Origin: an uncultured cyanobacterium
GTDB taxonomy: Bacteria > Cyanobacteriota > Cyanobacteriia > Cyanobacteriales > CAWCAG01
Direction: 5' to 3'
Assembly (NCBI GenBank): GCA_963803805.1
Contig: CAWDOD010000002.1
Location: 1,152,001-1,216,000, forward strand
DNA: 64,000 bases
Positions 8,728 through 56,500 of this stretch are shown here, one piece after another; within the stretch, counting starts at the first letter, position 1, and each line of letters opens with the position of its first letter. Below the pieces are notes generated by a model, which was given only the letters and a program-made list of their open reading frames with translations, did no database searches and had not been told where the DNA came from. A program made the translations under genes and the position numbers.

Positions 8728-8859
8728 AAATATTTATTTAGTTGAAGACCTTGGAGAGTGCAAAGATAGACGGATTCTGAACTATGATGGCACAGATTTT
8801 TGGTGATAATAGTGGCTTGAGGCCTTTTATACCAAATCCAATTCAAGTAGACTCGTTGA

Positions 8860-9005
8860 TATAGCAATTCTGAGTCAGGTGAGGTACACTCTTCTTTTCC
8901 CAATGTAGCCTGCGGCAAGGCTTACGCCAACCCCGCTCCCTGCTCCCTGCTCCCTACTCCCTTAAACTAGAAATTTAGTACCTTACAAGTAAGAGAATTG
9001 CTATA
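8860..9005. mobile_element. MITE-like element with TATAGCA termini
   Basis: Left TATAGCAATTCT-N7-GTGAGGTAC versus reverse complement of right end TATAGCAATTCT-N7-GTAAGGTAC; TA at both ends; no coding capacity. Confidence 0.8.
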
Positions 9006-9015
9006 AATGTTATTA

Positions 9016-10146
9016 TCAAGCTTCCAGAAATTCATCTAAACTTGGTACATCTACCCAACGTTCTTCCTCATTTGCTTTGTGGGTTAAGTCCATTAATAGT
9101 TGAGAATAGACTCCTTCGCGTAAAGTAGGATTTTTAAGCTCCCCTGCATCTATTCCTTGTACCCAATTGTTGACGACACGAATGAAAGGTGCTAAACGCC
9201 CATCAGGGAACACTTGGGTAAAAGCGAGGTGTTTGGGAACTTCTACTATCCCCAGAGGTTTGCCTATAGTTGCGGCTTTGAGGCGGAAACCATGAACATA
9301 ATCTTTGAGGTTATCGCTGCCTAAAACTAATGTACCGCGATCGCCATATATTTCTAGCCAATGTCCTCTACCATGATGGGTAACAGAACTAATAGTAAGT
9401 TGACAAGGAGTGCCGTCAGCTAGTTCCATCATTACCATACAGGTGTCATCGGCATCTACAGGTTTTAATTTCCCTCCATCGCCAGGATCAGGGCGCTGGG
9501 GAATGGCACAGCTTAATTTACTACTTAATTTTTTGACTGGACTAAATAACCAGTTAATATAATCAAAAGCATGGGAACCTACTGCCCCTAATGCACCGCC
9601 TCCTTTATCTTTAAGGGAATACCAGTTCCAAGGGCGTTCAGGATTAGCACGGCTCACTACTAACCAATCGATTTTAATCAGACGTTTCTTGCCCACATAA
9701 TCATCAGCCAGATATTTTGCTAATAGTTGCCAAGCAGGTACGAAACGAAATTCAAAATCTGCTGCGGCGATAACTCCTTTTTCGGCGGCTAGATGGTAAA
9801 GTTCTCTGGTTTGAGCAGCATTCATTGTCATGGGCTTTTCCAATAGTAAATGCTTCCCTGCTGACAAAACCGTCTTAGCCATGTCGTAGTGTAAAAATGG
9901 TGGGGTGGCAATGCTCACTGCCTCTACTTCTGGTAGGGAAACAATTTCTGCTACGCTAGTACAGCCATGGGGAATATTGTACTGCTCAGCAATTTTTTTC
10001 GCCTTTTCCCTATCCCTGTGATATACCGCGACTACTTCTGTACGGGGATGATTTTGAAAGCCTGGTATATGAATTTTCTGCCCAAACCCAGTACCGACAA
10101 TAGCAATACCAATTTTGGGTTTGTTTTGGGGATAGAAGGAATTCAT
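9016..10146 (-). CDS. Gfo/Idh/MocA family oxidoreductase
   Basis: IVGTGFG, IATPPFLH, GKHLLLEKP, GGGALGAVGSH. Confidence 0.92.
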   Translation of the reverse strand: MNSFYPQNKPKIGIAIVGTGFGQKIHIPGFQNHPRTEVVAVYHRDREKAKKIAEQYNIPHGCTSVAEIVSLPEVEAVSIATPPFLHYDMAKTVLSAGKHLLLEKPMTMNAAQTRELYHLAAEKGVIAAADFEFRFVPAWQLLAKYLADDYVGKKRLIKIDWLVVSRANPERPWNWYSLKDKGGGALGAVGSHAFDYINWLFSPVKKLSSKLSCAIPQRPDPGDGGKLKPVDADDTCMVMMELADGTPCQLTISSVTHHGRGHWLEIYGDRGTLVLGSDNLKDYVHGFRLKAATIGKPLGIVEVPKHLAFTQVFPDGRLAPFIRVVNNWVQGIDAGELKNPTLREGVYSQLLMDLTHKANEEERWVDVPSLDEFLEA

Positions 10147-31394: not shown

Positions 31395-33107
31395 ATGAAT
31401 AATGACACTAGTTGGATATTCCAGCAACCCCGCAATCTCATCAGTGTTTATGTCTTACTTAGTAGTGTCTGGATATTACTCTTTGACTTTTTATTACAGC
31501 AATTAATAGATGACCTTGAATTATTAAGCCAAATACAAAGTGTAAGAAGCTGGATTTTTGTCTTTACTACAGGTTTGTTTGTTTATTTGTTGTTACGTTG
31601 GCGGCTAAAAAACAAAAAACTTCCGAAAATAGAAACACTCAATCAAGATTCTCATACCGTGCTTCAATTAATTAGTAATAATTCTGACCAATCCCTGAAA
31701 AATTCACCTGGAAACTCCAAAGTCAAGAAGCAAAATAAAAATAAGCTTACTGATTGCGAACAATTAGAAAATGAGCTTGAACGAGTTGCTTTTTACGATA
31801 ACTCAACAGGATTACCAAACAAAGCTTGGTTTTTGAAACACTTAGATAAGCTTCTCAAATCAGAAAAAAATCAAGATCAAAAAGTATTTGCTGTAGTTTT
31901 TATTAATCTAGATCGCTTCGCCACGATTAAATATAGTTTAGGTCATAAAATTGCTGAGCAGTTAATTGCTACCATCGCTAAAGAAATTCAAGGAATCTTG
32001 GCATTAAATGAATCCATCGTGCGAGTAGGAGATAAAGCCTTGGCAATTTTATGGCAAGAACAATTATTTGAACTAGATGTTATCTCCCTTGCTAAACTCG
32101 TTTCCAAAAAATTAAACTCTCCCCTTAACTTAAATGATTATGAAATATATTCTCCTGTTAGTATAGGAATTGCTTTTGGCAACAAGAATTCTCAAACAGA
32201 AAAAAACTGCTTTTCTCAGCCAGAAGATTTACTAGATGCAGCAGATACGGCTATGAATTATGCCAAAACTGAAGCTAAAGCTGGTTATGCTGTCTTCAAA
32301 CCCCAAATGCACCAGCAAGCTTTAGCACGTTTGCAGTTAGAAACAGACTTGCGACGAGGTATTCAAAATGAGCAACTGAAAATTGTTTACCAACCAATAG
32401 TTTCTCTAAAAACCGGCGTTATTACTGGATTTGAAGCCCTAGTGCGTTGGAAACACCCTACAGAGGGCTGGATTTCTCCCAACAAATTTATTCCTTTAGC
32501 AGAAGAAAGCGGTTTAATAAGTTCAATTGATTGGTGGATTTTAGAAAAAGCTTGCCAACAAATCAGCACTTGGCAAAGAGAAGGTAAAGTAAGTGATTCT
32601 TTTGCTGTAAGTGTGAATATGTCTGGGCAAATGCTCTATCAAATCGGTATGCAGTCTCGTTTGGAGAGTATTTTAAGTAAAACTCAAATTAAAAGAGGTA
32701 GCTTGAAGCTAGAAATCACTGAAAGGGTGATGATGAAACACAATGATGTCGAAACAGGAATGCTGCAACAGCTTAAGTCTCTCGGTATTAAACTTTCTAT
32801 TGACGATTTTGGTACAGGTTATTCTTGTTTGGAAAGATTGCATCAACTGCCCATTGATACTTTAAAGATAGACCGTTCTTTCGTTAGTCGTATGGATTCT
32901 GACGAAGAAAGTTTAGAAATTATTCGCACCATTATTACCTTAGCCCACGGCTTGGAAATGGATGTGATTGCCGAAGGGATTGAAGAAGCAGAACAAATTT
33001 CTCAACTACTTTGGTTACAGTGTGAATATGGACAAGGATATTTGTTTTCTAAACCTCTTCAAGGGAAAGCAGCAGAGAAGTTGTTAGCAGAAAAATTGTA
33101 TTGGTAA
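31395..33107 (+). CDS. Membrane-anchored GGDEF(degenerate)-EAL protein, probable c-di-GMP phosphodiesterase
   Basis: Two N-terminal TMs; GLPN and NLDRF, with RVGDKAL at the GGDEF position; intact EALVRW, LEITE, DDFGTGYS, KIDRSF, AEGIE, QGY. Confidence 0.9.
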   Translation: MNNDTSWIFQQPRNLISVYVLLSSVWILLFDFLLQQLIDDLELLSQIQSVRSWIFVFTTGLFVYLLLRWRLKNKKLPKIETLNQDSHTVLQLISNNSDQSLKNSPGNSKVKKQNKNKLTDCEQLENELERVAFYDNSTGLPNKAWFLKHLDKLLKSEKNQDQKVFAVVFINLDRFATIKYSLGHKIAEQLIATIAKEIQGILALNESIVRVGDKALAILWQEQLFELDVISLAKLVSKKLNSPLNLNDYEIYSPVSIGIAFGNKNSQTEKNCFSQPEDLLDAADTAMNYAKTEAKAGYAVFKPQMHQQALARLQLETDLRRGIQNEQLKIVYQPIVSLKTGVITGFEALVRWKHPTEGWISPNKFIPLAEESGLISSIDWWILEKACQQISTWQREGKVSDSFAVSVNMSGQMLYQIGMQSRLESILSKTQIKRGSLKLEITERVMMKHNDVETGMLQQLKSLGIKLSIDDFGTGYSCLERLHQLPIDTLKIDRSFVSRMDSDEESLEIIRTIITLAHGLEMDVIAEGIEEAEQISQLLWLQCEYGQGYLFSKPLQGKAAEKLLAEKLYW

Positions 33108-37478: not shown

Positions 37479-38900
37479 TCACCCTAGCTTTTCTTGACAG
37501 CGTTCTACATAAATACGAGCAGTTTTATCTTCAGGATTCTGCTCTACACATTCACAGAAAAGCATTTCTGCTTCAGCATAATACTTTTGGTGGAAAAACA
37601 GTAATCCCTGTTCAAATCTAATTTTAGTCTCCAATTTTCCTTGGCGTACTTCGGGAGGATCACCATCAAACACCTCATAAATAGTAACCCAATCCGATTT
37701 ACCTTTAACTTTAACCCGGTCAATAATACGAATACAATAATTGTTAGCGTCTTTTAATTTTAAGAAAGTATGATGGGAAATAAAGAAAGATACCCCATAA
37801 CTTTCGGTTATTTCTTCTAGTCGAGCAGCTAAATTAACCGTATCACTAATAACAGTACCATCCATACGATTTTTGCCTCCAACTGTACCCAACATCAAAG
37901 AACCTGTATTAATACCAATACCAATTTTAATCGGCGCACGTCCCGGTCTTTGTCTGGTTTGATTATATTCATCTAAAAGTTTTAACATAGAAATGCCAGC
38001 GGTAACAGCATCATCTGCACTACCACTAAAAAGAGCCATAATAGCATCGCCAATATATTTATCAATGAAACCATTATTATTAATAATTGCTGGCTCCATG
38101 CGGCTTAAATAGGCATTAATAAAGTTAAAGCTATCTTTTGAACTCATGCGTTCAGAAAGACTAGTAAAAGCTCGAATATCAGAAAATAAAACCGACATTT
38201 CCTTTTCTACAGATTCTCCTAATTCCACATCAATAATACTTTTTTTATTTAAGAACTGGAGAAACTCATGGGGAACAAAACGTTCGTAAGCTTGGTTAAG
38301 TTTAAATAATTGGTTAGTATATTTGCGAAGCTCTAACTCAGCATTTTTGCGTTCTGTAATATCAGCAAAAGCCGCGATCGCATAAATAATTTCTTTCTTT
38401 TCATTAAAGATTGGTGTCGCCCAAACTTCCACAGAAATAGTTTTATTTCCTTGGCGTATTTCTACATCATCAACAGCAACACTTTCTCCTTGCAAAGCCC
38501 TTAATAAAGGTTGGCGATCGCCAGGATAAAATTCAGCAGTTTCTGATAGATAAAATTGATATACTTCTGATAGCTTCTCGGCGGTGATTTCTGGAGCGAT
38601 ACCTTTACCTAACAATTGTTCTGCTCTTTTATTAGCGTAAAAAGGTTTGCCTTGAGCATCAACAACAAAAACGCCTATGGGCATAGCTTCTAGAAATTGC
38701 TGCAATCTCTTCTTGCTTTCAACTAAAACAGTTTCTGCTTGTTTGTGTAGTTCTGCTTCAATAGTGTCAGAATGTTCAGTAGTTGTCTCTAGGAGAATTT
38801 CTAGGTCAACTTTTTCCTGCTTTAACTCCGCAAGTTCCTGACGCAGATTTTCTATCTCTAATAAGAGTTGTTCTGTAGAGGGTGGTTCTTCTTGCTGCAT
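37479..38900 (-). CDS. Class III adenylate cyclase with N-terminal coiled coil, PAS domain and C-terminal TPR-like helix pair
   Basis: LFSDIRAFT, IDKYIGDAIMA (Lys, ATP-specifying), GIGINTG, DGTVISDTVNLAARLE, VKGKS; PAS (MPIGVFVVD...DITERK). Confidence 0.93.
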   Translation of the reverse strand: MQQEEPPSTEQLLLEIENLRQELAELKQEKVDLEILLETTTEHSDTIEAELHKQAETVLVESKKRLQQFLEAMPIGVFVVDAQGKPFYANKRAEQLLGKGIAPEITAEKLSEVYQFYLSETAEFYPGDRQPLLRALQGESVAVDDVEIRQGNKTISVEVWATPIFNEKKEIIYAIAAFADITERKNAELELRKYTNQLFKLNQAYERFVPHEFLQFLNKKSIIDVELGESVEKEMSVLFSDIRAFTSLSERMSSKDSFNFINAYLSRMEPAIINNNGFIDKYIGDAIMALFSGSADDAVTAGISMLKLLDEYNQTRQRPGRAPIKIGIGINTGSLMLGTVGGKNRMDGTVISDTVNLAARLEEITESYGVSFFISHHTFLKLKDANNYCIRIIDRVKVKGKSDWVTIYEVFDGDPPEVRQGKLETKIRFEQGLLFFHQKYYAEAEMLFCECVEQNPEDKTARIYVERCQEKLG

Positions 38901-38966
38901 TGCACAGGATGGGATTCATTTTTCAAAGTTTAATTCGATTTACTTAATTACTTATTACTTACTATT

Positions 38967-39311
38967 CTACGCCCATTCTAATTCTAAGCTAGGCATCAAG
39001 CGTTGGAGATTTTTCAAGGATTTGCCTTGCCAAGGAATTTGCTTAGATCCCTGTACTACCATAGAAACATCTTTTTTCTGGCGGACTTTAATAACAAATT
39101 TTGATAAAACATTAATACCTGAACTATTAAGAAACTGCAAGTCTTGCAAATTCAAAGTAATAATGGGAGACTTTTGTTCAAGGACTTGGTGTAGTAACTC
39201 AATAATTGGTGCATATTCTTCCATACCACTAAGTCTTAGAGTCCCTTGACAGTTTACCGTTGCTGTAGATTGTTTATAGCAAATACTGTATTCTTTTGTC
39301 TTAATCTCCAT
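38967..39311 (-). CDS. STAS/anti-anti-sigma-like protein (slr1659-like, SiaC analogue)
   Basis: 114 aa; LNLQDLQFLNSSGINVL resembles the STAS phosphoacceptor motif (D/N)SSG. Confidence 0.8.
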   Translation of the reverse strand: MEIKTKEYSICYKQSTATVNCQGTLRLSGMEEYAPIIELLHQVLEQKSPIITLNLQDLQFLNSSGINVLSKFVIKVRQKKDVSMVVQGSKQIPWQGKSLKNLQRLMPSLELEWA

Positions 39312-39326
39312 TTCTACCTCTGTAAG

Positions 39327-39908
39327 CTATAACTTTAGCTGTACTAATGTGGTTAAAGCAACTATTTCTGGATCTTGCTGCACCGTCTCTAATTTCCAGC
39401 CAACCTGTGCCATATAATCATTGATTATGGTTAAAAAGCCTAACCCAGAGTTGGTATCGTTGTCACCCTGAGCATTTTCTTCTAATTGCAGAATATATAA
39501 TTCTTGGGGATCGTAGGTTGCTAGTTTGTTGATAAAAACTTTAAGTTTATCTTGGTATTGAGAACTAATGCTATTAGTAGTAGAAAAAACCACTCTATCC
39601 CGGTGAAAATGCAAGCTAATACTGATCGGATAATCCTTTTCTTCATCATTGAACTTCATTGCATTTTCTAACAATTCATTGGCAATATAACTAACAGCAC
39701 CTTTAATCTCTGCTTGATGCTCCATCTCATTTAACTCAATTTCATTGTTAAGAAAGAAAGTGGTTAAATAGTCTCCTAAAAAATCAGCCGATAAACCATT
39801 GTTGCGCCAACGTTTCTTGATGGGAACTGAGCTAGGTGAAAATTGCAGGATCAAATATTCTTGAGTTGCAGGTAGATTGTGTCCGTAGTCTCCAAATACT
39901 TGCTTCAT
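39327..39908 (-). CDS. GHKL-type Ser/Thr kinase-like protein (slr1658/SiaB-like, DUF6272)
   Basis: N-box ANELLENAMKF, G-box SGLGFLTI, no HisKA; ATGA overlap with upstream amt fusion. Confidence 0.8.
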   Translation of the reverse strand: MKQVFGDYGHNLPATQEYLILQFSPSSVPIKKRWRNNGLSADFLGDYLTTFFLNNEIELNEMEHQAEIKGAVSYIANELLENAMKFNDEEKDYPISISLHFHRDRVVFSTTNSISSQYQDKLKVFINKLATYDPQELYILQLEENAQGDNDTNSGLGFLTIINDYMAQVGWKLETVQQDPEIVALTTLVQLKL

Positions 39909-42397
39909 GGTAATTCAATTATTTCTAACCCTTTTCTTTTAATTGCCACCAAAGTAATATCATCATAAATCTTTTGCTCCCCAATATATTCTTTGAGATG
40001 GCTAATTACCTCAGAGCAAATCTCCCCCACAGATTTAGACCAATGTTGTTGGATTACTTGACACAATCTTTCTATGCCGTAATGTAAACCATCCTCATTT
40101 TCAGCCTCGGTAATCCCATCTGTATAAAGTATTATTCCATCTCCTGGCCCTAACTCTACCTTTGTTTCTGCTAAGAACTCAACTACATCTTCAATTAAAC
40201 CTAAAGGAAAACCTAAATCAATGGTATCAATCCGCTCAATTTCGCCATTTTGGCGTACTAAAATGACTTCTTCATGTTGACCACTTAAGGTAAGAATACC
40301 TGCTTGATAGTCCAATAAACAAAGGGTAAGATTTTTGTCAGAACTCATACGTTGGACATTCTCATACACTGTCCAATTAATAGCTTCTAGGTATTTTTTG
40401 AGGTCAGTCTCGCCATTGGCTAATAGGGTTCGTACAGCAGTTTGTACCATCAACATCAGTACCCCACTCTCTAAGCCATGTCCTGTCACATCGCCAATAC
40501 CAATTTTGAAACTACCGTCATGATAGATGACATCATAATAATCTCCTCCCACTTCGTGGGCAGGTTCCATGAAACCAGCTATGTCTAACTCTGGTATTTT
40601 CCTAAGTTCTTCCTGATTAGGGAGAATCATGGTTTGGAGGCGACGGGTGATATCTACTTCTGCACTGAGGCGGAGGTTTTCTTGTTGCAGTCTTTGATTA
40701 AGGGTGGTAATTTCTAAGTTAGCTTGGGCTAAAGCTTGTTGGGCTTCTTTGCGATCGCTTATATCTCGAAAAATGCCAGTGTAGAATCCCCCGGAGGCTA
40801 ATTTTGCTTCTGATAAGCTAGCTTCTAAAGGTAGTGTTGAATCATTGGCTTGCTTACCAATAATTTCATGTAAACCTACTCCTAATAAATTCTCTAAGGA
40901 AATATCTTCCGGCAATTCCAAAAGTTGATACATCGACATTCCTACTAAATTGCTAAGAGGATAGCCGAAAATCACTTCTGCACTAGGATTAGCCATAATA
41001 ATTTGTAAATCTAGTTTGCTGAAGGTGATGATGGCATCAGTGGCGGTTTTAAAAAGAGCTTCTGTGCGGTTTATAGCTTCTTCTAAAGCATCCATTACCT
41101 GATTGTAGCGTTGGGCAATTAAGCCGACTTCAGTAAAGGGTTCTACGGGAACACGCAAACTCAAATCTTGAGTTTCGGCTTGCAAATCCATAACCTTAAA
41201 TAAGTCGTGAACCTCTGTTTTAGCGCGATGTTCTGATATATTTAAACCAACTTTCTCTTCTTGCAAAGAAACTCGTAAAGGGAAGAAACGTTTAAGGGAG
41301 CTTAGTAGCAAGTAACTTAGACCGAAAGACCAGATAAAACAGACAAAAATCCCCAACAATTGTACTAAAATTTGGTTTTCTTTGTTTAATCCGGTTGCTA
41401 ATAAATCTGCTTTGCCAAACAAAGCTACAGCTAAAGTTCCCCATACTCCTGCCCCACCATGAACGGCGATCGCATCTACTGCATCATCAATACGCCAACG
41501 TTTAAGCCAGTAGGAAACAACCATAGTAACCCCTGCACCAATAGAACCAATAATTGCTGCTTCCCCTGTATTAACCACATTACAGTTAGCTGTGATGGCT
41601 ACTAGCCCCGCTAGAGAGCCATTAATTAGTACCTCTACTTCCGGGATTTTGTGCTGCTGCCAACCAATTATTCCGGCGGTAATCATCCCTGCCACCCCAG
41701 CTAAGACAGTGTTAACAATGATGCCAGGGACTTGCTCGTTTAATTCTAGGGTGCTGCCACCATTGAAGCCTAACCAACCAATCCACAATAACATGGCTCC
41801 TAAAACAGAAAACTGTAAATTGGAGCCGTGAATTTTAAGGGGCCTTCCTTCAGGGAGAAATCTGCCAGTGCGAGAACCAATAACTAATAAAGCGGCTAAA
41901 CCTACCCAACCTCCTACGCTATGAACAACTGTAGAACCAGCAAAATCTACAAAACCAAGTTGTTTTAACCATCCGGCTTGGTTCCAACTCCAATGGCCAA
42001 AAAAAGGATAAATTGTACTGGAAACTAAACCGGTAGTGATTAGGTAAGCCCCAAACTTCATACGTTCTGCCACTGCCCCGGAAACTATGGTGGCGGTAGT
42101 GCTACAAAACATGACTTGGAAAAGGAAGAAGGCAGCTTTTTGAGGTTGGGAGTCTAAATTGGTCAAAAAGTCCGTTGAGCCAAGCCAGCCCCCCTGGGAA
42201 ACCCCAAACATCAAAGCATAACCGAATAGCCAAAAGAAGGCTACGGAAATGCCGAAATCTGCTAAGTTTTTAACCGCAACGTTAATACTATTTTTTGAGC
42301 GTGTTAATCCTGACTCCAAACACATAAACCCTGGTTGCATTAAAAATACTAAACCAGCAGAAACCAGGAGCCAGAGGATGTTAACAGTTGTCTCCAT
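39905..42397 (-). CDS. amt: Ammonium transporter fused to HAMP-like, PAS and SpoIIE/PP2C phosphatase domains
   Basis: Amt motifs MQPGF..LE.G, FQVMF, SGAVAERM, DFAGSTVVHSVGG, GWLGFNGGS, DDAVDAIAVHG, LRVS..EE..GLN.SEH; PP2C motifs VGGDYYD, GDVTGHG, YTDGITEA, DDIT. Confidence 0.95.
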   Translation of the reverse strand: METTVNILWLLVSAGLVFLMQPGFMCLESGLTRSKNSINVAVKNLADFGISVAFFWLFGYALMFGVSQGGWLGSTDFLTNLDSQPQKAAFFLFQVMFCSTTATIVSGAVAERMKFGAYLITTGLVSSTIYPFFGHWSWNQAGWLKQLGFVDFAGSTVVHSVGGWVGLAALLVIGSRTGRFLPEGRPLKIHGSNLQFSVLGAMLLWIGWLGFNGGSTLELNEQVPGIIVNTVLAGVAGMITAGIIGWQQHKIPEVEVLINGSLAGLVAITANCNVVNTGEAAIIGSIGAGVTMVVSYWLKRWRIDDAVDAIAVHGGAGVWGTLAVALFGKADLLATGLNKENQILVQLLGIFVCFIWSFGLSYLLLSSLKRFFPLRVSLQEEKVGLNISEHRAKTEVHDLFKVMDLQAETQDLSLRVPVEPFTEVGLIAQRYNQVMDALEEAINRTEALFKTATDAIITFSKLDLQIIMANPSAEVIFGYPLSNLVGMSMYQLLELPEDISLENLLGVGLHEIIGKQANDSTLPLEASLSEAKLASGGFYTGIFRDISDRKEAQQALAQANLEITTLNQRLQQENLRLSAEVDITRRLQTMILPNQEELRKIPELDIAGFMEPAHEVGGDYYDVIYHDGSFKIGIGDVTGHGLESGVLMLMVQTAVRTLLANGETDLKKYLEAINWTVYENVQRMSSDKNLTLCLLDYQAGILTLSGQHEEVILVRQNGEIERIDTIDLGFPLGLIEDVVEFLAETKVELGPGDGIILYTDGITEAENEDGLHYGIERLCQVIQQHWSKSVGEICSEVISHLKEYIGEQKIYDDITLVAIKRKGLEIIELP

Positions 42398-42731
42398 AAT
42401 GAGTTAAGGATAATCTTTCATCGCAAAAACTATTTCTCAATATAAAGGGAATACAGTACTAGTAGTTTAATGACCTCCTAGACCTTTCTAAAGCCAAGTT
42501 TTAGGAACTACAATAGATAAAACTAAGCTTGGTAATATAACGGTATATATGAGCTAGTGTCAACATAATATTTTTTTACGAATTCCCCTGCAAATTATAT
42601 TTATCTAACTCAAGTTGAACATTAAGCGAACGTGATCGCAAACGTAGCTGTCCGACTATAGAAACAATCGAGGGATAATTTATACCAATAGAAATAAAGG
42701 GGTCAACTAGATACTACTAGTCTATTAACTC

Positions 42732-45182
42732 ATGCAAATTTTAACTTCTTCTCCTTCACTACCGACCCTAGAACAAATTATTAATCCCTATCCTTTAGTT
42801 GTGCCAGCTAATGCCCCAGTTAGAGATGTGATGACTTTCTTAATACAGGGACAAAAAGATACTCACGGTGAACTTTGTGCTGTTGTTAAAGAGCAGGAAA
42901 AAATCCTGGGTATATTGACTCAACAAGATGCTATTAAATTAGCATTATTAGGAAAAAGTTTGGGATTTGTAGGTGTTGCAGATGTAGTAGAGAAAAACCC
43001 GATAGTTTTAACTGAAGCTCAATACAATAATGTTTTTCAGGTTTGTGCTTTATTGCGCCAATACCAAACTAATCACTTACCAGTTGAAGACGATCAAGGA
43101 AGCTTAAAAGGAGTAGTAACTTCAGAGTTAATTCTCAATTTTTTGCAAGGAAGTCATATTTGGCAGCAATGTCTTATTAATGAGGTGATGAATATTGAGA
43201 GCTTCAGTATTGCTCCCCAAACTTCATTACTTCAAGCGACTAAATTAATGTCTAAAAACAAGAAGAATTACGTCATTATTTGTCAAGGTATTCAACCTTT
43301 AGGATTACTAACTACCAGAGATATTCTCCAGTATCAACTGAATGACTCTAATTTGGCACAAGTCCAAGCTTCGGCAGTTATTAATACTTCTGTGTTGAAA
43401 GTATTGCCAGAAGATTCTTTAGACTCAGCATGGCCAAAACTACAGCAAAATAATTGGCAACCATTGTTAGTGATCAATAGTCAAGGAGTATTACTCGGAA
43501 CCTTAACTACAGCTAGTTTTTTGCAATGCTTTGAACCAAAGGAAATGTACAAAGATATTGAGCGATTATACCAAGAAAATCAACAGCTTAGAAACGAAAA
43601 AGCCAATCTTTTAAAGTATCAATCTCAAGAAACACAATCAGAGCTACAAGAAGCAAAAGACCAACTCCAAGCAGTTTTGGATGCTATGCCAGGAACTATT
43701 TCTTGGATTGATTCAGATTTACACTATTTAGGAGTTAACAAACAATTATCTAGTCTTTTTGAGAAGCCTACAGAAGCTTTTGTGGGCAAGCAAATTGGCT
43801 CTTTTAAACAAAATGATGAATTTGGCACTCATATGGAATGCTTCTTTTCTAGTTCCGATAAAGAGTCTTCCCTAGAAGTAGAAATGCAAGTTGGTGACTC
43901 GTTTAATAACTATTTAGTTGTTACCCGTAAGTATAACCATGATCGAGCGGCTGTGGCTGTAGGCGTTAATATAACTGACCTCAAGCGCTCAGAAATAGAA
44001 TTACGCCGCCAAAGTCTTAAATCTCGACTATTCGCTGAAATTAGCTTGAAAATTCGCCAATCTTTGCAATTAGAAGAAATCTTACAAACCACTGTTACAG
44101 AAGTACAGCAGATATTTCAAGTAGACAGAGTTTTAATTTATCATTGCTTAGCTTCTGGGCTAGATAAAGTCATTATGGAAGAAGTTTTATTTGGTTGGCC
44201 AAAAACTTTAGGGATGTCTTTTCCCCAAGAAGTTTTTTTTCAAAATCACCAAGATAGTTGGCAGCAAGGACAAGTTTTAGCTATTGCTAATTTAGAAGAA
44301 GAATATAGTCAGACTTCACCATCTTTAGTAGCTTTCTGGCGAACCTGGTTAGTGAAGGCTAAGTTAGTTGTACCTATTTTACAACAAGAGAAACTTTGGG
44401 GTTTAATCATCGTTCATCAATGTTCTAGTTCCAGAAATTGGAGTAGTTTTGAAACAGAATTATTACAACAGCTAGCTGATCAAGTAGGTATTGCCATTTC
44501 TCAAGCTCAACTTTTAAAAGAACAGCAAGAAAGTGAAGCGATGATTCGAGCATCTTTACAGGAAAAAGAAGTTTTATTAAAAGAGATTCACCATAGAGTT
44601 AAGAATAACCTCCAGGTCATTTCTAGCCTTTTTTCTTTACAGTCTTATTACCTGGAAGACTCTAAAACTTTGCGAGTACTTGAAGATAGTCAAAGTAGAG
44701 TCAAAGCCATGGCTTTAATTCATGAAAAAATCTATAATTCTCAAGATTTATCCAAGGTGGATTTTGCTAAATATATCCAAGATTTAGCAAGTTATTTATT
44801 CCATGCCTACGAACCTAACCCGCAGGTAGAGCTAGAAATTGATGTTGAACCTATCTCCCTGAATTTAGATACTGCTACTCCTTGTGGATTGTTGATTAGC
44901 GAAGTTATTTCTAATGCTTTGAAATACGCTTTCCCTAATAAAGAGCCAGGGAAAATATGGATTAAACTTCGTCATTCAAATCAAAAAGAAATGGTCTTAG
45001 AAATAGGAGACAATGGCGTGGGCTTGTCCTCTAACATTAATTTAGATAACTCAGAATCTTTAGGACTTCAGTTAGTTAGAGATTTAGCACAACAGTTAAA
45101 AGGCAAACTAGAAATAAATTGTCATCAAGGAACAAGCTTAAAAATTAGTTTTTCCGAACTACAATACCGGAGACGAATGTAA
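42732..45182 (+). CDS. CBS-PAS-GAF sensor histidine kinase (HisKA_2/HWE-like)
   Basis: CBS-like N-terminal repeats, PAS (VLDAMPGTISW...NITDLK), GAF (IRQSLQLEEIL...DRVLIY...LWGLIIVHQC), EIHHRVKNNLQ, SNALKYAF, DNGVGL, SLGLQLV. Confidence 0.9.
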   Translation: MQILTSSPSLPTLEQIINPYPLVVPANAPVRDVMTFLIQGQKDTHGELCAVVKEQEKILGILTQQDAIKLALLGKSLGFVGVADVVEKNPIVLTEAQYNNVFQVCALLRQYQTNHLPVEDDQGSLKGVVTSELILNFLQGSHIWQQCLINEVMNIESFSIAPQTSLLQATKLMSKNKKNYVIICQGIQPLGLLTTRDILQYQLNDSNLAQVQASAVINTSVLKVLPEDSLDSAWPKLQQNNWQPLLVINSQGVLLGTLTTASFLQCFEPKEMYKDIERLYQENQQLRNEKANLLKYQSQETQSELQEAKDQLQAVLDAMPGTISWIDSDLHYLGVNKQLSSLFEKPTEAFVGKQIGSFKQNDEFGTHMECFFSSSDKESSLEVEMQVGDSFNNYLVVTRKYNHDRAAVAVGVNITDLKRSEIELRRQSLKSRLFAEISLKIRQSLQLEEILQTTVTEVQQIFQVDRVLIYHCLASGLDKVIMEEVLFGWPKTLGMSFPQEVFFQNHQDSWQQGQVLAIANLEEEYSQTSPSLVAFWRTWLVKAKLVVPILQQEKLWGLIIVHQCSSSRNWSSFETELLQQLADQVGIAISQAQLLKEQQESEAMIRASLQEKEVLLKEIHHRVKNNLQVISSLFSLQSYYLEDSKTLRVLEDSQSRVKAMALIHEKIYNSQDLSKVDFAKYIQDLASYLFHAYEPNPQVELEIDVEPISLNLDTATPCGLLISEVISNALKYAFPNKEPGKIWIKLRHSNQKEMVLEIGDNGVGLSSNINLDNSESLGLQLVRDLAQQLKGKLEINCHQGTSLKISFSELQYRRRM

Positions 45183-45184
45183 CT

Positions 45185-46285
45185 ATGAAACCAACAAAAA
45201 TTCTCATTGTTGAAGATGAGATTATTACCGCTAGGGATATATCTTTGAAATTGCAAAAGCTTGATTATCAAGTAGTTGGTATTGCTGACTCTGGAAATGT
45301 TGCCCTGGAAAAAGTAGCTGAATATGAACCAGATTTAGTGCTGATGGATATAGTTTTGCAGGGAGATATAGATGGTATAGAAGTGGCTCAACAAGTTCGC
45401 CATTCCTTCAATATTCCTGTGATTTATTTGACTGCCTATGTTGATCAAGAAACTTTACAAAGAGCAAAAATAACTGAACCTTTTGGTTATATTCTCAAAC
45501 CTTTTAAAGGGCAAGAACTACGCACCCATATCGAAATTGCTTTATATAAACATAAGTCAGAAATAGAAATTCGTCGTGCTTTAGCTAAGCAAAAAGAATT
45601 AAATGAGCTTAAATCTCGATTCATTACCCTTGCTTCCCATGAATTTCGTACTCCCTTAACAGCAATTCTTGGCTCTACTGAATTGCTAAGACATTATGGA
45701 GAGAGTTTACCTCAAGATAAAAGAAATCATTATCTTGAAAAAATTAAAGCTACTATTAAAGGAATGACAGATACCTTAGATAGTATTTTAACTCTTAGTC
45801 AAGCAGAAGCTGATAAAATCATCTTTAAACCAGTAGCCTTAAATTTAAGCAAAGTTTGTCAAGAGGTGGTTAGAGAATTTCAAGGAGATGAGGAAGAGGA
45901 AAAGAGGATTATTTTTTTTGATGAATGTCAGTTAAATTCTGTTTTAGCAGATAAGAATTTGATTCGCTATATTATTGCTAATTTATTAGTTAATGCAATT
46001 AAATATTCTCCTCAAAATAGCAAAATATCATTTTCCTTAATCTGTCAGGAAGGAGAAGCTATTTTCATTATTAAAGATAGTGGTATTGGTATCCCTTCAG
46101 AAGAATTGGATAAACTATTTGATTCTTTTTACCGGGCTACTAATGTAGGAGATATTCCGGGAACTGGTTTAGGTTTATCTGTGGTTAAGCAATTGGTTAG
46201 TTTGCATGGTGGCAATATAAAAGTAGAAAGTGAGTTGGCAAAAGGGGCAACTTTTACCGTTACTTTACCATTAGGCATTGTTTAA
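45185..46285 (+). CDS. Hybrid response regulator-histidine kinase
   Basis: ILIVEDE, LMDIVL, LTAY, ILKPF; SHEFRTPL, NAIKYS, DSGIGI, GTGLGL; 2 bp after the preceding stop. Confidence 0.93.
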   Translation: MKPTKILIVEDEIITARDISLKLQKLDYQVVGIADSGNVALEKVAEYEPDLVLMDIVLQGDIDGIEVAQQVRHSFNIPVIYLTAYVDQETLQRAKITEPFGYILKPFKGQELRTHIEIALYKHKSEIEIRRALAKQKELNELKSRFITLASHEFRTPLTAILGSTELLRHYGESLPQDKRNHYLEKIKATIKGMTDTLDSILTLSQAEADKIIFKPVALNLSKVCQEVVREFQGDEEEEKRIIFFDECQLNSVLADKNLIRYIIANLLVNAIKYSPQNSKISFSLICQEGEAIFIIKDSGIGIPSEELDKLFDSFYRATNVGDIPGTGLGLSVVKQLVSLHGGNIKVESELAKGATFTVTLPLGIV

Positions 46286-53509: not shown

Positions 53510-56500
53510 TTACCATTCTCCCTGAACAGTAAAAGCCGCCCAGTGATAGGGATCTTTTTCAGCACCATCACTTCGCCACATCTCTAACTGTGCCTCCCTC
53601 AAAGCCGCAGCAGGTTTGAGGTTGTCTTGGTACATCTTTTCATAAAACCTACTCATCAACTTAGAAGTAGAAAGATCCTGCACTGCCCACAAACTCACTA
53701 CCACTCGCTTAGCCCCAGCATACATAAAGCCCCTAGTTAAGCTTACTAAACCTTCCCCGGCTAACTCTTGCCCTAAACCAGTTTCACAAGCACTCAAAAC
53801 TACTAATTCTGCTGGTAAGTTGAGGTTGTAAATGTTGTTTAAACGCAGTAGAGGGTCTTGGAATTGTCCTTGGGAGTTGTAAGCTGATAGGGCTAAACCA
53901 GAAAGTTGAGGATTATCTTTGTTGAGGCAACCGTGGGTAGAAAAGTGAACGGTTTGGTAATTAGCAAGTTGAGGACTGGTTGCTGTAGCTAGGGAGGCTT
54001 CATAACCCAAGGCGGCAAAGCTTTGGTTTTCTGGGACGAGGGCAAGGATGTTTTCTGCTTCTGCGCGTGTGAATTGTAGGTTAGCTAGCTCTCGACAGGA
54101 TTTTAGAGCTTGTTGAGTTAAGTTTTCTGTGAGATACTCAGTATCTGAGTCTTCTTTCCTTTCTAGTTCGTAAATTGGATCTGCAATAACAGCTAGCTTT
54201 TTAGGGGCCGGAGTACGACCTTGAACATTTTGCCGTAGGGCGGCTAGGCTGGAGGCGGAAGGTAGGGTGATGATTTCGTGGTTTGCTAACAGAGGTTTTG
54301 TAGATTGGGGAGATGGTAAGGCAGCGAAAGGGATACTTTGCAATACTCCATCACCGACGATTAAGAGGCGTTTATTTTGTAATTCCTTGGCGGCAGGGGC
54401 AAAGAGGATATTGCTGAGTTGTTGGGCTGTTTCTGGATCTTTGATATTAACGTTGGCGATGTCGTTGCGGAATGCTTCAGCGAGTTGTTCTATTTCTGCT
54501 TGGGGAGGAAGTTGGTAGCTGGTGACTTTGTTTTTGCTGACTAGCCAAAGATAGCTTTGTTTTTCGCTGAGGTAGTATTCTAATAAGATGGTGTCTTCGT
54601 CCAGGAGTTGTTGAATTTCTTTGGTTTGTAGAGTGAATTTAGTCGGTTGATTGATGGCAGCGTAGTTAGGGCTTTTCAGGCGGATGGTGGCTTCTACTTC
54701 GTCAAGTTGGGTGAGGAGTCGATTGATTTGGTTATTGGCGGCTTCTTTTTCTGGGTTACTAGCATTTTTACTCCTTTGCAGTTTGCCTTGATTTTCCAAA
54801 GCGGCAGTGAGTTGTTGGTTAAGTTGTTTTTCTTGTGCTAAAAGTTGTGCATCTATGCCTTGGCGAATGTCTACGTTAGCTTCTTGGAGTTCGGTGAGGA
54901 GTTGGCGGGCGCGGACTCTTTCGCTGTAATGGAGTGCTTGGGCGTTGTATTGTTGGGTGGGTTTTTGTTGGTGCAACTCCATTAGTAACCTGATGTGGAA
55001 GTCGTAGTAGTCTTCAATGGTTTGGTAGAAGGAGGTTTGTAGTTGGGGGTTGAAGATTTGGTTGCGGAGAAATTCTATTTTTTCTATGGCTTGCTCCATT
55101 GTTTGGGATGCAGCGAGGAGGTTGCCTTGTTCGTATTGAAGTCGAGCAATGTTCCAGAGAGTAGTCGCTTCTCCTTTGCGATCGCCTACAGTACGAATTA
55201 GGGGTAAAGCTTGGTTATAGTAATTAAGTGCTTGTTGCTTTTCTCCTAATGAGTAGTAGACAAGACCAATGTTATTGAGGATTTGTGCTTCCCCTCTTCT
55301 ATCTTCCACAGCACGAGATAGGGGTAAAGCTTGGTCATAGTAATTAAGTGCTTGTTGTTTTTCTCCTAAATCGTCGTAGACAAGACCAATATTGTTGAGG
55401 ATTTGCACTTCCCCTGCTCTATCTTCCACAGCACGAATTAGAAGTAAAGCTTGGTCATAGTAATTAAGTGCTTGTTGTTTTTCTCCTAATGATGAGTAGA
55501 TACTACCAATGTTATTGAGGGTTGTTGCTTCCCCTCTTCTATCTTCCACAGCACGAATTAGAAGTAAAGCTTGGTCATAGTAATTAAGTGCTTGTTGTTT
55601 TTCTCCTAAATCTGAGTAGACGCGACCAATATTATTGAGCGTAGTTGCTTCCCCTCTTCTATCTCTCACAGCACGAATTAGAAGTAAAGCTTGGTCATAG
55701 TAATTAAGTGCTTGTTGTTTTTCTCCTAATGATGAGTGGACACCACCAATATTGTTGAGAATAGCTGCTTCCCCTTCTTTATCTTCCACAGCACGAATTA
55801 GGGGTAAAGCTTGGTTATAATAATTGAGTGCCTCTTGCTTTTCTCCTAATGAATTGTAAACAAGACCAAGATTGTTGAGGGTATTTGCTTCTCCTATTTG
55901 ATCTTCTACGGCACGACGTAGAGGTAAAGCTTGCTTATAGTAATCAAGTGCTTTTTGCTTTTCTCCTAAATCATCGTAGACAGCACCAATATTGTCGAGG
56001 GTAGTTGCTTCTCCTATTTGATCTTCTACGGCACGAAATAGGGGTAAAGCTTGATTGTAGTAATTGAGTGTTTTTTGTTTTTCTCCTAATGAGTTGTAGA
56101 CAAAACCAATACTGTTGAGAATAGTTGCTTCTCCTGCTCTATCGCCTACAGCACGACGTATAGTTAAAGCTTGGTTGTAGTAATTAAGTGTTTTTTGTTT
56201 TTCTCCTAATAAGTAGTAGACAGCACCAATATTATTTAGGATTAAAGCTTGTCGAGATTCATCATTTATCTGCTGCCAAAGTTTAAGTGCTTCCTTATAT
56301 TTAGCGCTCGCCTCTCGCAAAGACTCCGCCGTCCCTTCCCGATAAAGCCGCAAACCTTCCTGATAAGCTTCCTCAGCAGCAGCGCGAATATCTTCAGCAT
56401 TCGCATCACTTTCTTGGGCAACTTCTATCGCATCTGTACTTGCTACAGCAACAGCAATAGGACTAACCAAAGAAACAAACAAAGCAAAAGAAAAGAGGGA

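Follow-up and report, generated by a model that had tools for sequence, protein, structure and literature searches.

We analyzed a 64-kb window from the genome of an uncultured cyanobacterium (64,000 nucleotides, positions 1,152,001 to 1,216,000 of contig CAWDOD010000002.1, assembly GCA_963803805.1; all positions below are those of this whole stretch), in which four genes, here called A to D, had been read from the sequence alone as an ammonium-sensing partner switch that controls a cyclase. The four co-oriented open reading frames (ORFs) of this original prediction were recovered exactly on the minus strand. According to the ORF list and domain scans, gene A (39905..42397) encodes a sensor phosphatase of 830 amino acids with the organization Amt-HAMP-like-PAS-PP2C. 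Gene B (39327..39908) encodes an slr1658-family GHKL kinase-like protein of 193 amino acids, assigned by the model NF052618 and a fold search, and gene C (38967..39311) an slr1659-family, STAS/SiaC-like putative phospho-switch protein of 114 amino acids, assigned by NF047705 and a fold search. Gene D (37479..38900), as judged by Pfam and by alignment with a PDB entry, encodes a class III adenylate cyclase of 473 amino acids, in which a conserved N-terminal motif, here called NMOD, precedes a PAS domain. A and B overlap by 4 bases, and gaps of 15 bp and 66 bp separate B from C and C from D, respectively. In the window's genome each of the four occurs once: a single phosphatase of the A subfamily, a single B, a single C and a single protein with NMOD. 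As far as sequence can tell, this is a real, coherent signaling cluster, a variant of the SiaABCD switch with an ammonium-receptor input and an adenylate cyclase output; what is new here is NMOD, a conserved motif predicted to be the docking site for C, which would generalize the system.

The N-terminal part of A is an Amt domain (residues 8-393, 41219..42376; Pfam Ammonium_transp, E 7e-122), and both pore histidines previously noted in it are retained, within VVHSVGG at 157 (His159) and AVHG at 311 (His313). When searched against PDB, this domain scored best with ammonium receptors: Sd-Amt1 reached 394 bits over residues 7-438, through the linker that follows the Amt domain, and Ks-Amt5 (6eu6) reached 304 bits, while the scores were 201 bits for Af-Amt1 and about 135 bits for E. 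coli AmtB. The Sd-Amt1 entries are 8qj3, 8qj4 and 8qpf, and residues 404-450 of Sd-Amt1 are described as a HAMP domain (PMC11152129). The same source proposes for ammonium receptors (AmRs) the N1/N2 signature QX6EX15NX2D[F/T]X54-60TX2[S/T], which as a regular expression matches A at residues 21-106 but fails to match the three further Amt ORFs in the window's genome (two plain Amt proteins and a fused one, the latter missing the signature by one position). A combines the features of this class, namely the Amt fold, the twin histidines, the N1/N2 signature and a C-terminally fused cytoplasmic transducer, so that the proposal of an ammonium-sensing Amt domain finds support in silico.

The linker (residues 394-442, 41072..41218) had been described as HAMP-like, a label that stands in part: the linker string is present at 414, and residues 393-438 align with the region that the authors of Sd-Amt1 describe as HAMP (about residues 404-448 in the alignment), but Pfam calls no HAMP in A at E <= 0.01. 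Among the homologs of A, some do have a HAMP on record in Pfam, e.g., P0038, P0042 and P0044. Next come a PAS domain (residues 443-548, 40754..41071; PAS_9 E 3.5e-7, NCBIfam sensory_box) and a PP2C/SpoIIE phosphatase module (residues 553-821, 39935..40741), in which Pfam finds SpoIIE at 627-821 (E 4e-39), the SiaA model covers 553-819 at 60 bits and the PDB entry 6k4e matches with E 7e-11. Its four acidic motifs are intact, as had been claimed (GGDYYD at 617, GDVTGHG at 635, TDGITE at 759 and DDITL at 812).

Three NCBIfam models of the slr1658/slr1659 families were applied (NF052618, NF047703 and NF047705). B passes the slr1658 models, with 271 bits for NF052618 slr1658_cyano (cut-off 200) and 242 bits for a second one (cut-off 100); its match to the SiaB-family model is weak (24 bits, cut-off 85). 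A sequence search of B against PDB gave no meaningful match, and a fold search was used instead. The top Foldseek matches of its AlphaFold2 model (pLDDT 85) were UsfX, SiaB (6kko_A), SpoIIAB and RsbW, with SiaB at rank 2 and showing the highest TM-score normalized to the query (0.53), in agreement with the earlier description of B as a small GHKL protein. Across 70 sequences of the family, N77, E78, N82, K85 and G157 are invariant, and the N-box and SGLG are kept. C passes the slr1659_superfam model NF047705 (172 bits, cut-off 100), its matches to STAS and SiaC models being weak, and it is only 12-14% identical to SiaC. The closest folds to its AlphaFold2 model (pLDDT 95.5) are those of SiaC (6k4f at rank 1; 7e6g_F with a query-normalized TM-score of 0.73), followed by anti-sigma antagonists. 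The NSSG motif reported for this STAS-like protein corresponds to N62-S63-S64-G65, and F60, N62, S63 and G65 are invariant among 73 family sequences. Ser63 (codon at 39123..39125, minus strand) opens helix 2 in the model and aligns with the SSG of SpoIIAA; together with the family invariance, this makes it the candidate phospho-acceptor. The predicted folds, that of B resembling SiaB and the anti-sigma kinases and that of C most resembling SiaC, speak for the proposed phosphatase/kinase/STAS trio, as does the presence of slr1658 in every genome of the order with a full-length fusion like A (21/21, see below).

B and C are an adjacent pair in the window, as in the slr1658/slr1659 family at large. 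Of the 201 genomes of the order, 115 contain a member of the slr1658 family, and we surveyed 80 of the family's loci, about one per genus and paralog: C follows B in 75 of them, and a PP2C gene lies no more than three genes upstream of slr1658 in 46. These PP2C genes carry diverse sensor parts, namely Amt, CHASE-HK-REC, dCache-HAMP, GAF, REC (with CheB), MHYT, Ser/Thr kinase-AAA16-GAF (about 1800 amino acids), CHASE2, MASE1, Tll0287-like and HisKA-REC. The PP2C of A is 51-63% identical to PP2Cs that, in other genomes, lie directly upstream of slr1658 behind unrelated sensors and about 30-36% identical to other PP2Cs; within the window's genome it is the only one of its subfamily, the next closest being 30% identical. 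No sigma factor was found among 160 neighbors scanned around the 80 loci (86 downstream and 74 upstream), a result that bears on linked genes only. At five of the 80 loci (L147, L152, L159, L182 and L187), a gene for a giant Ser/Thr kinase-AAA_16-GAF-PP2C protein (about 1760-1840 amino acids) stands directly before slr1658.

Fusions of Amt with PP2C recur well beyond the window. Among the best 120 relatives of A from a collection of 5.8 billion proteins, 81 combine Amt and SpoIIE; they are mostly cyanobacterial, Beggiatoa also being represented, and the named ones are all labeled just "ammonium transporter." In the remainder, the same Amt subfamily is fused to histidine-kinase domains in 34 and to PAS and a class III cyclase in 4, and 1 is Amt alone. 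In a second set of 80 named genome loci related to A, Amt and PP2C share one ORF at 33, of which 20 have B and C homologs just downstream, 3 lie at a contig edge and 10 have other genes downstream; for this last group, slr1658 was found elsewhere in the genome in 5 of 5 tested cases. An apparent 1-kb insertion in relatives (about 3.5 kb for 817 residues) proved to be spurious, since the match had been joined with a PP2C domain from another gene that lies upstream. The survey of the 201 genomes came out in favor of the phosphatase/kinase/STAS trio of the original prediction: full-length Amt-PAS-PP2C proteins occur in 21 genomes, all 21 of which have slr1658, adjoining the fusion gene in 15 and unlinked in 6, all six from one genus.

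The Amt-PP2C gene often has further PP2C genes beside it, which encode a CHASE domain, a PilJ domain or no recognized sensor domain, and several sensors may therefore converge on one B/C pair. In Coleofasciculus (L048-L055, L101) and in Baaleninema/Geitlerinema/Phormidium (L058-L072), the second PP2C gene is found either between Amt-PP2C and slr1658 (CHASE-PP2C, 605-621 amino acids) or just upstream (453-476 amino acids).

D had been described as a cyclase with an N-terminal coiled coil. The cyclase holds, with a catalytic domain at residues 233-406 (37683..38204; Pfam PF00211, E 4e-18), whereas the N terminus is a specific conserved motif rather than a generic coiled coil, and between the two lies a PAS domain (residues 65-185, 38346..38708; Pfam PAS E 1e-10) that the earlier description lacked. 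In class III cyclases, Lys and Thr (or Asp) serve substrate recognition and Asp residues bind metal, alongside a conserved Asn and Arg. The best PDB match of D is CyaB (3r5g, E 8.5e-28), with which it has the catalytic positions of an adenylate cyclase in common: Lys (idKyigd) and Thr (dgTvis) are present in both, and D also keeps, in the alignment with CyaB, the metal-Asp contexts (fsDir, igDa), the Asn (tvN) and the Arg (aaR). At the Lys and Thr positions Glu and Gly are found in 2w01, the second-best match, which we take to be the Synechocystis guanylate cyclase Cya2. The window's genome has an unusually large complement of about 43 class III cyclase-like ORFs (blastp E < 1e-5), 12 of which are at least 46% identical to the catalytic region of D.

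NMOD spans 54 amino acids of D (residues 10-63, 38712..38873; ..DLEILLETTTEHSD..), as aligned in A1. Pfam and NCBIfam returned no family for residues 1-60 of D. BLAST finds counterparts of residues ~4-70, 40-60% identical to them, where neighboring cyclases, GGDEF proteins and small kinases begin, and the 41 sequences of A1 give the core consensus E.LL..I..LR.EL..LK.EK.DLEILLETTTEH.D..E..LH. A profile of the motif matched 37 ORFs in 30 of the 80 slr1658 loci, often in two tandem copies, and among the 23450 stop-to-stop ORFs of the window's genome it matched D alone. Across the 201 genomes, slr1658 and NMOD occurred together in 93, slr1658 only in 22, NMOD only in 2 (weak matches) and neither in 84, so that 93 of the 95 NMOD-positive genomes have slr1658; these are given as counts, related genomes not being independent samples. 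Run against a library of 1.84 billion representatives, the profile retrieved 437 proteins with E <= 0.001, of which 185 had E <= 1e-10. Domain scans of 100 of the best 126 (26, mostly short fragments, were left out) returned 39 GGDEF proteins, 26 histidine kinases, 14 class III cyclases, 3 proteins with PAS only, 3 others and 15 without a strong domain.

Right after C on the same strand, the 80 slr1658 loci have a class III cyclase in 18 cases (one being the sister genome of the window), an MscS-like channel in 8, a GGDEF protein in 5, a lysyl-tRNA synthetase in 5 (all in the Amt-PP2C clade), a small HisKA-HATPase kinase in 3, and an M23 peptidase followed by ComFB in 3; the remaining 38 have another gene, a gene on the opposite strand, or no C. 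Two more loci have a cyclase second, after a GGDEF gene, one has it between the PP2C gene and B, and a GGDEF gene lies right before B at five. NMOD is carried by 17 of the 18 cyclases after C, by 10 of 10 adjacent GGDEF proteins and by 3 of 3 adjacent small histidine kinases. The placing of the cyclase directly after slr1659, the tracking of slr1658 by its motif and the predicted binding to C described below support the earlier assignment of the cyclase as the output.

Some arrangements of these loci deserve separate mention. At L133, a gene for a GGDEF protein with two NMOD copies is followed by B and C, with no adjacent PP2C or Amt gene, and at L132 a second slr1659-like gene (8803-9141) comes after an NMOD-GGDEF gene, two STAS paralogs flanking one output. 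The MscS-like channels after C measure 533-612 amino acids (L136, L145, L150, L159, L162, L163, L186 and L201), and the same position after slr1659 is taken by a bestrophin at L135 and by a K+ channel pair at L160; ion channels may be a second output class that docks differently. The order at L140, L179 and L204 is HisKA-REC-PP2C (short ORFs in L140), slr1658, slr1659, M23 peptidase and ComFB. No NMOD protein was found within these three loci themselves, and for L140 (G019) and L204 (G153) an NMOD match lies 2-9 kb beyond the surveyed stretch.

We modeled the encounter of C with NMOD as a complex of two copies of NMOD (from A1) and two copies of C (from A2), with C as the scored partner. The interface score (ipSAE) was 0.87, compared with 0.02 for the best of three controls, the pLDDT of the partner was 92, and the runs agreed in 100% of contacts. 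Modeling the STAS protein with the N-terminal coiled coil of the cyclase had been proposed as a check in the original prediction, and the outcome supports binding of C to NMOD through the Ser63 face. On D, the predicted interface comprises residues 32, 35-50 and 52 (the ILLETTTEHSD core), including the nearly invariant D32, L37 and H43. On C it comprises residues 26, 28-30, 60-64, 66-67, 70-71, 74, 93-94, 97-98, 101-102 and 104-105, and takes in six of the ten invariant residues of the protein (F60, N62, S63, S70, W94 and N101). SiaC uses N67/T68/S69, where helix 2 starts, as well as helices 2 and 3 to bind two tandem motifs on the stalk of SiaD, and phosphorylation of its acceptor T68 blocks SiaD binding (PMC8457831). 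The predicted C-NMOD contact mirrors this solved complex.

The gene set, its domains, families and folds, the conservation of the modules, the co-occurrence of NMOD with slr1658 and the predicted interface are established computationally. Based on them, we favor, as the probable reading of the cluster, a linear, SiaABCD-like pathway in which both the input and the output are new, leading from the putative ammonium receptor A through the B/C switch to the cyclase D. The Amt domain of A would act as a receptor of the Ks-Amt5/Sd-Amt1 type, with ammonium as its presumed ligand, and would control its own PP2C via the HAMP-like linker and the PAS domain. B would phosphorylate C, presumably on Ser63, and the PP2C of A would strip this phosphate. 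Unphosphorylated C would then bind NMOD by its Ser63 face and, if the analogy with SiaC and SiaD holds, stabilize the active dimer of D. An ammonium signal would in this manner be turned into cyclic AMP (cAMP), both the sign of each step and the product being presumed.

Several observations weigh against this linear pathway or limit the evidence for it. The gene order is conserved as modules but not as a whole: outside the window's genus, a class III cyclase follows C in none of the 20 Amt-PP2C loci with B and C, and the complete four-gene combination was found only in that genus (G000 and G001). At these 20 loci, C is followed by a class I lysyl-tRNA synthetase or by opposite-strand genes, except at L071, where Amt-PP2C, B and C precede a GGDEF gene with two NMOD copies, the sole NMOD occurrence around the 80 Amt loci, where the Amt-PAS-cyclase fusions are devoid of the motif. 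NMOD is also absent from all 8 MscS-like proteins after C, and because 22 of the 115 slr1658-positive genomes show no NMOD match, other outputs must exist, e.g., the MscS-like neighbors. The adjacency counts are partly circular, since the profile derives from proteins next to slr1658, a circularity that the absence of NMOD from slr1658-negative genomes escapes. B lacks the canonical GHKL DxGxG box, in place of which the 70 sequences of its family have TNS and an invariant N112, and its kinase activity is for this reason an assumption. As to the predicted complex, its mark was also reached by 58 out of 80 complexes of solved structure and by 2 out of 110 mismatched pairs, a calibration that is only rough here because custom alignments and 2+2 copies differ from the calibration set; the score may also partly reflect likeness to SiaC-SiaD, since a complex of the latter is solved.

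The same parts could be wired by anti-sigma logic, with B instead of C holding D silent via NMOD until unphosphorylated C captures B and thereby releases the cyclase. The fold of B would allow it, as it lies just as near to UsfX, SpoIIAB and RsbW, anti-sigma factors that bind their outputs, but C is predicted to meet NMOD far above the controls through its invariant phospho-site face, and its closest fold is that of SiaC, a direct binder of its cyclase; we regard this wiring as unlikely. Slightly less likely still is a partner switch formed by A, B and C for which D is a mere neighbor, the true output lying elsewhere. The 66-bp gap before D, the missing cyclase at the 20 loci of other genera and a genome so rich in cyclase-like ORFs that cyclase neighbors are not rare would suit it, whereas the status of D as the sole NMOD carrier in this genome, and the tracking of slr1658 by NMOD over 201 genomes, argue for D as a genuine target. 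So do the L071 gene order and the Amt-PP2C clade without a linked output, where the one protein with NMOD, a GGDEF enzyme of 243-278 amino acids, is encoded at an unlinked site.

That PII and Amt proteins interact is well known, and this counts in favor of a further alternative, in which the main role of A is that of an ammonium transporter or transceptor, and the target of its PP2C is a different substrate, e.g., phospho-PII, rather than B/C. The twin histidines and pore motifs of A are intact, and the N1/N2 signature class includes true transporters such as plant AMT1 (PMC11152129), so that sequence cannot separate sensing from transport for A, which weakens the receptor assignment as well. 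Yet the PP2C is of the SpoIIE type and closest to those upstream of slr1658, genomes with the fusion all have slr1658, mostly adjacent, and the nearest solved relatives of the Amt domain are non-transporting receptors, all of which makes this alternative improbable. The possibility that D makes cyclic GMP, or is a regulatory pseudo-enzyme, is one that we give the least credence: its Pfam family does span adenylate and guanylate cyclases, and 2w01 is its second-best match, but the CyaB-like Lys and Thr in place of the Glu and Gly of Cya2, with the metal Asp, Asn and Arg also present, favor an adenylate cyclase.

Elsewhere in the same genome, outside the window, lies a gene (G000:C2:753713-757135; L214:1217-4636) for an Amt-HisKA-HATPase-REC-class III cyclase protein of 1140 amino acids. 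Its Amt domain is 65% identical to that of A and its cyclase region 66% identical to that of D; it has no NMOD and falls one residue short of the AmR signature. Judged by its domains, this fusion could be a second, direct route from ammonium to a cyclase, and it gives a second, independent hint that ammonium sensing is tied to cyclases in this genome.

A candidate promoter, TTGACA-18-TATATT (42534..42563, minus strand, 11 of 12 positions matching), lies about 137 bp upstream of A. It is a candidate only, since such sites are no commoner in the region than in shuffled sequence (13, compared with a shuffle mean of 16.5), and neither the promoter nor the terminator scan of the region gave counts above shuffles. 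No NtcA box (GTAN8TAC) was found upstream of A; the sole regional match is inside coding sequence at 41133, and the window holds 5 matches, fewer than shuffles (10.8). The neighbors of the cluster are unrelated to A-D, with a convergent glycosyltransferase gene downstream. Divergent from A, at 42732-46285 on the plus strand, are a gene for a CBS-GAF-HisKA_2/HWE-type kinase (816 amino acids) and, directly after it, one for a REC-HisKA-HATPase hybrid (366 amino acids); in other genomes, no link of this pair to the A-D cluster was seen. A GGDEF-EAL protein of 570 amino acids without NMOD is encoded at 31395-33107 on the plus strand, 4.4 kb from the cluster. The strongest strand asymmetry of the window falls in the 2-kb bin at 54001-56000 (GC skew +0.22, AT skew -0.24).

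Beyond this cluster, NMOD may be a portable docking tag by which a phospho-switchable STAS protein of the slr1659 type commands three classes of dimeric enzymes, class III adenylate cyclases, GGDEF diguanylate cyclases and histidine kinases, yielding in the window's genus an ammonium-to-cAMP line independent of PII and NtcA; we put this forward tentatively, as a possibility that falls a little short of even. If true, cyanobacteria would have a plug-and-play network in which numerous sensor-PP2C proteins feed a single kinase/STAS core that acts on tagged outputs, NMOD would predict which cyclases, GGDEF enzymes and kinases are targets of the switch, and the control of cAMP synthesis by a partner switch would be the first of its kind. 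Nitrogen sensing in cyanobacteria is understood as intracellular, with 2-oxoglutarate read via PII, NtcA and PipX. A membrane receptor that passes external ammonium on to cAMP in the window's genus, or to cyclic di-GMP elsewhere among the genera, would add to this a second layer of its own. The poorly understood Slr1658 and Slr1659 would gain a concrete mechanism, and the principle of SiaC and SiaD, a STAS-like protein clamping a helical stalk, would extend to class III cyclases.

A literature search found no experimental account of an Amt-PP2C protein, of the slr1658/slr1659 mechanism or of NMOD, its scope ending short of the domain-organization lists of PMC11152129 (Fig. 7 and supplements), which may already tabulate phosphatase fusions. 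The statement in the original prediction that the combination lacks an experimental description stands for the combination as a whole; its parts are not wholly undescribed, because an Amt-phosphatase fusion of SAR11 (PMC11796062) and a phenotype of slr1658 disruption are in print. This disruption in Synechocystis has strong effects, namely poor recovery from iron starvation and an approximately 1000-fold rise of pgr5 (Zer et al. 2018, as cited in PMC7555055 and PMC6525291). The SAR11 protein, Amt-GI5 (Amt, HAMP-like and PPM phosphatase), resembles A as an Amt-phosphatase fusion and has been proposed on bioinformatic grounds to sense ammonium; its authors report no partner proteins and call the fusion exclusive to SAR11 within their marine dataset (PMC11796062). 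Unlike A, it has 716 amino acids and no PAS domain, and it comes without any link to a STAS/kinase pair or a cyclase.

Slr1658 and Slr1659 of Synechocystis sp. PCC 6803 gave their names to the NCBIfam families of B and C, and the Slr1657-Slr1658-Slr1659 set of that strain is matched in arrangement by L133, with its GGDEF output and without an adjacent PP2C or Amt gene. A predicted interaction sub-network groups Slr1657-1660 with Sll0536 and with Sll0537, presumably an Amt. Slr1657 itself is listed as "XXX-GGDEF" (PMC10124867, Table 1). The trio of PP2C, GHKL and STAS proteins, and their folds, are shared with the RsbU/RsbV/RsbW and SpoIIE/SpoIIAA/SpoIIAB switches, from which the system differs in that its outputs are enzymes and that sigma factors are missing from the neighbors scanned. 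Ks-Amt5 (Amt-histidine kinase) and Sd-Amt1 (Amt-HAMP-GGDEF), the closest solved relatives of the Amt domain of A, likewise carry a fused C-terminal transducer; in A the transducer is a PAS-PP2C phosphatase, which in our proposal acts on a separate phosphoprotein, so that the signal would leave the putative ammonium receptor by dephosphorylation.

The closest parallel is SiaABCD of Pseudomonas aeruginosa (PP2C SiaA, kinase SiaB, phosphoprotein SiaC and diguanylate cyclase SiaD), which follows the same gene logic as A-D. SiaB and SiaC rank first or nearly first among the structural matches of the B and C models, both systems have an N-(S/T)-S acceptor motif at the start of helix 2, and in both the output has at its N terminus a conserved helical motif, which often occurs as tandem copies, like those of the SiaD stalk. 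The sequence models of the Sia proteins nonetheless fall below their cut-offs here, SiaA with 60 bits (cut-off 700) and Pfam SiaC with 18.4 (cut-off 24.5), as does SiaB; NMOD has no detected similarity to the SiaD stalk, and the slr1659 STAS family, unlike SiaC, also neighbors histidine kinases. The present cluster is set apart from SiaABCD above all by its two ends, an Amt-receptor input and a PAS-class III cyclase output instead of the GGDEF diguanylate cyclase SiaD.

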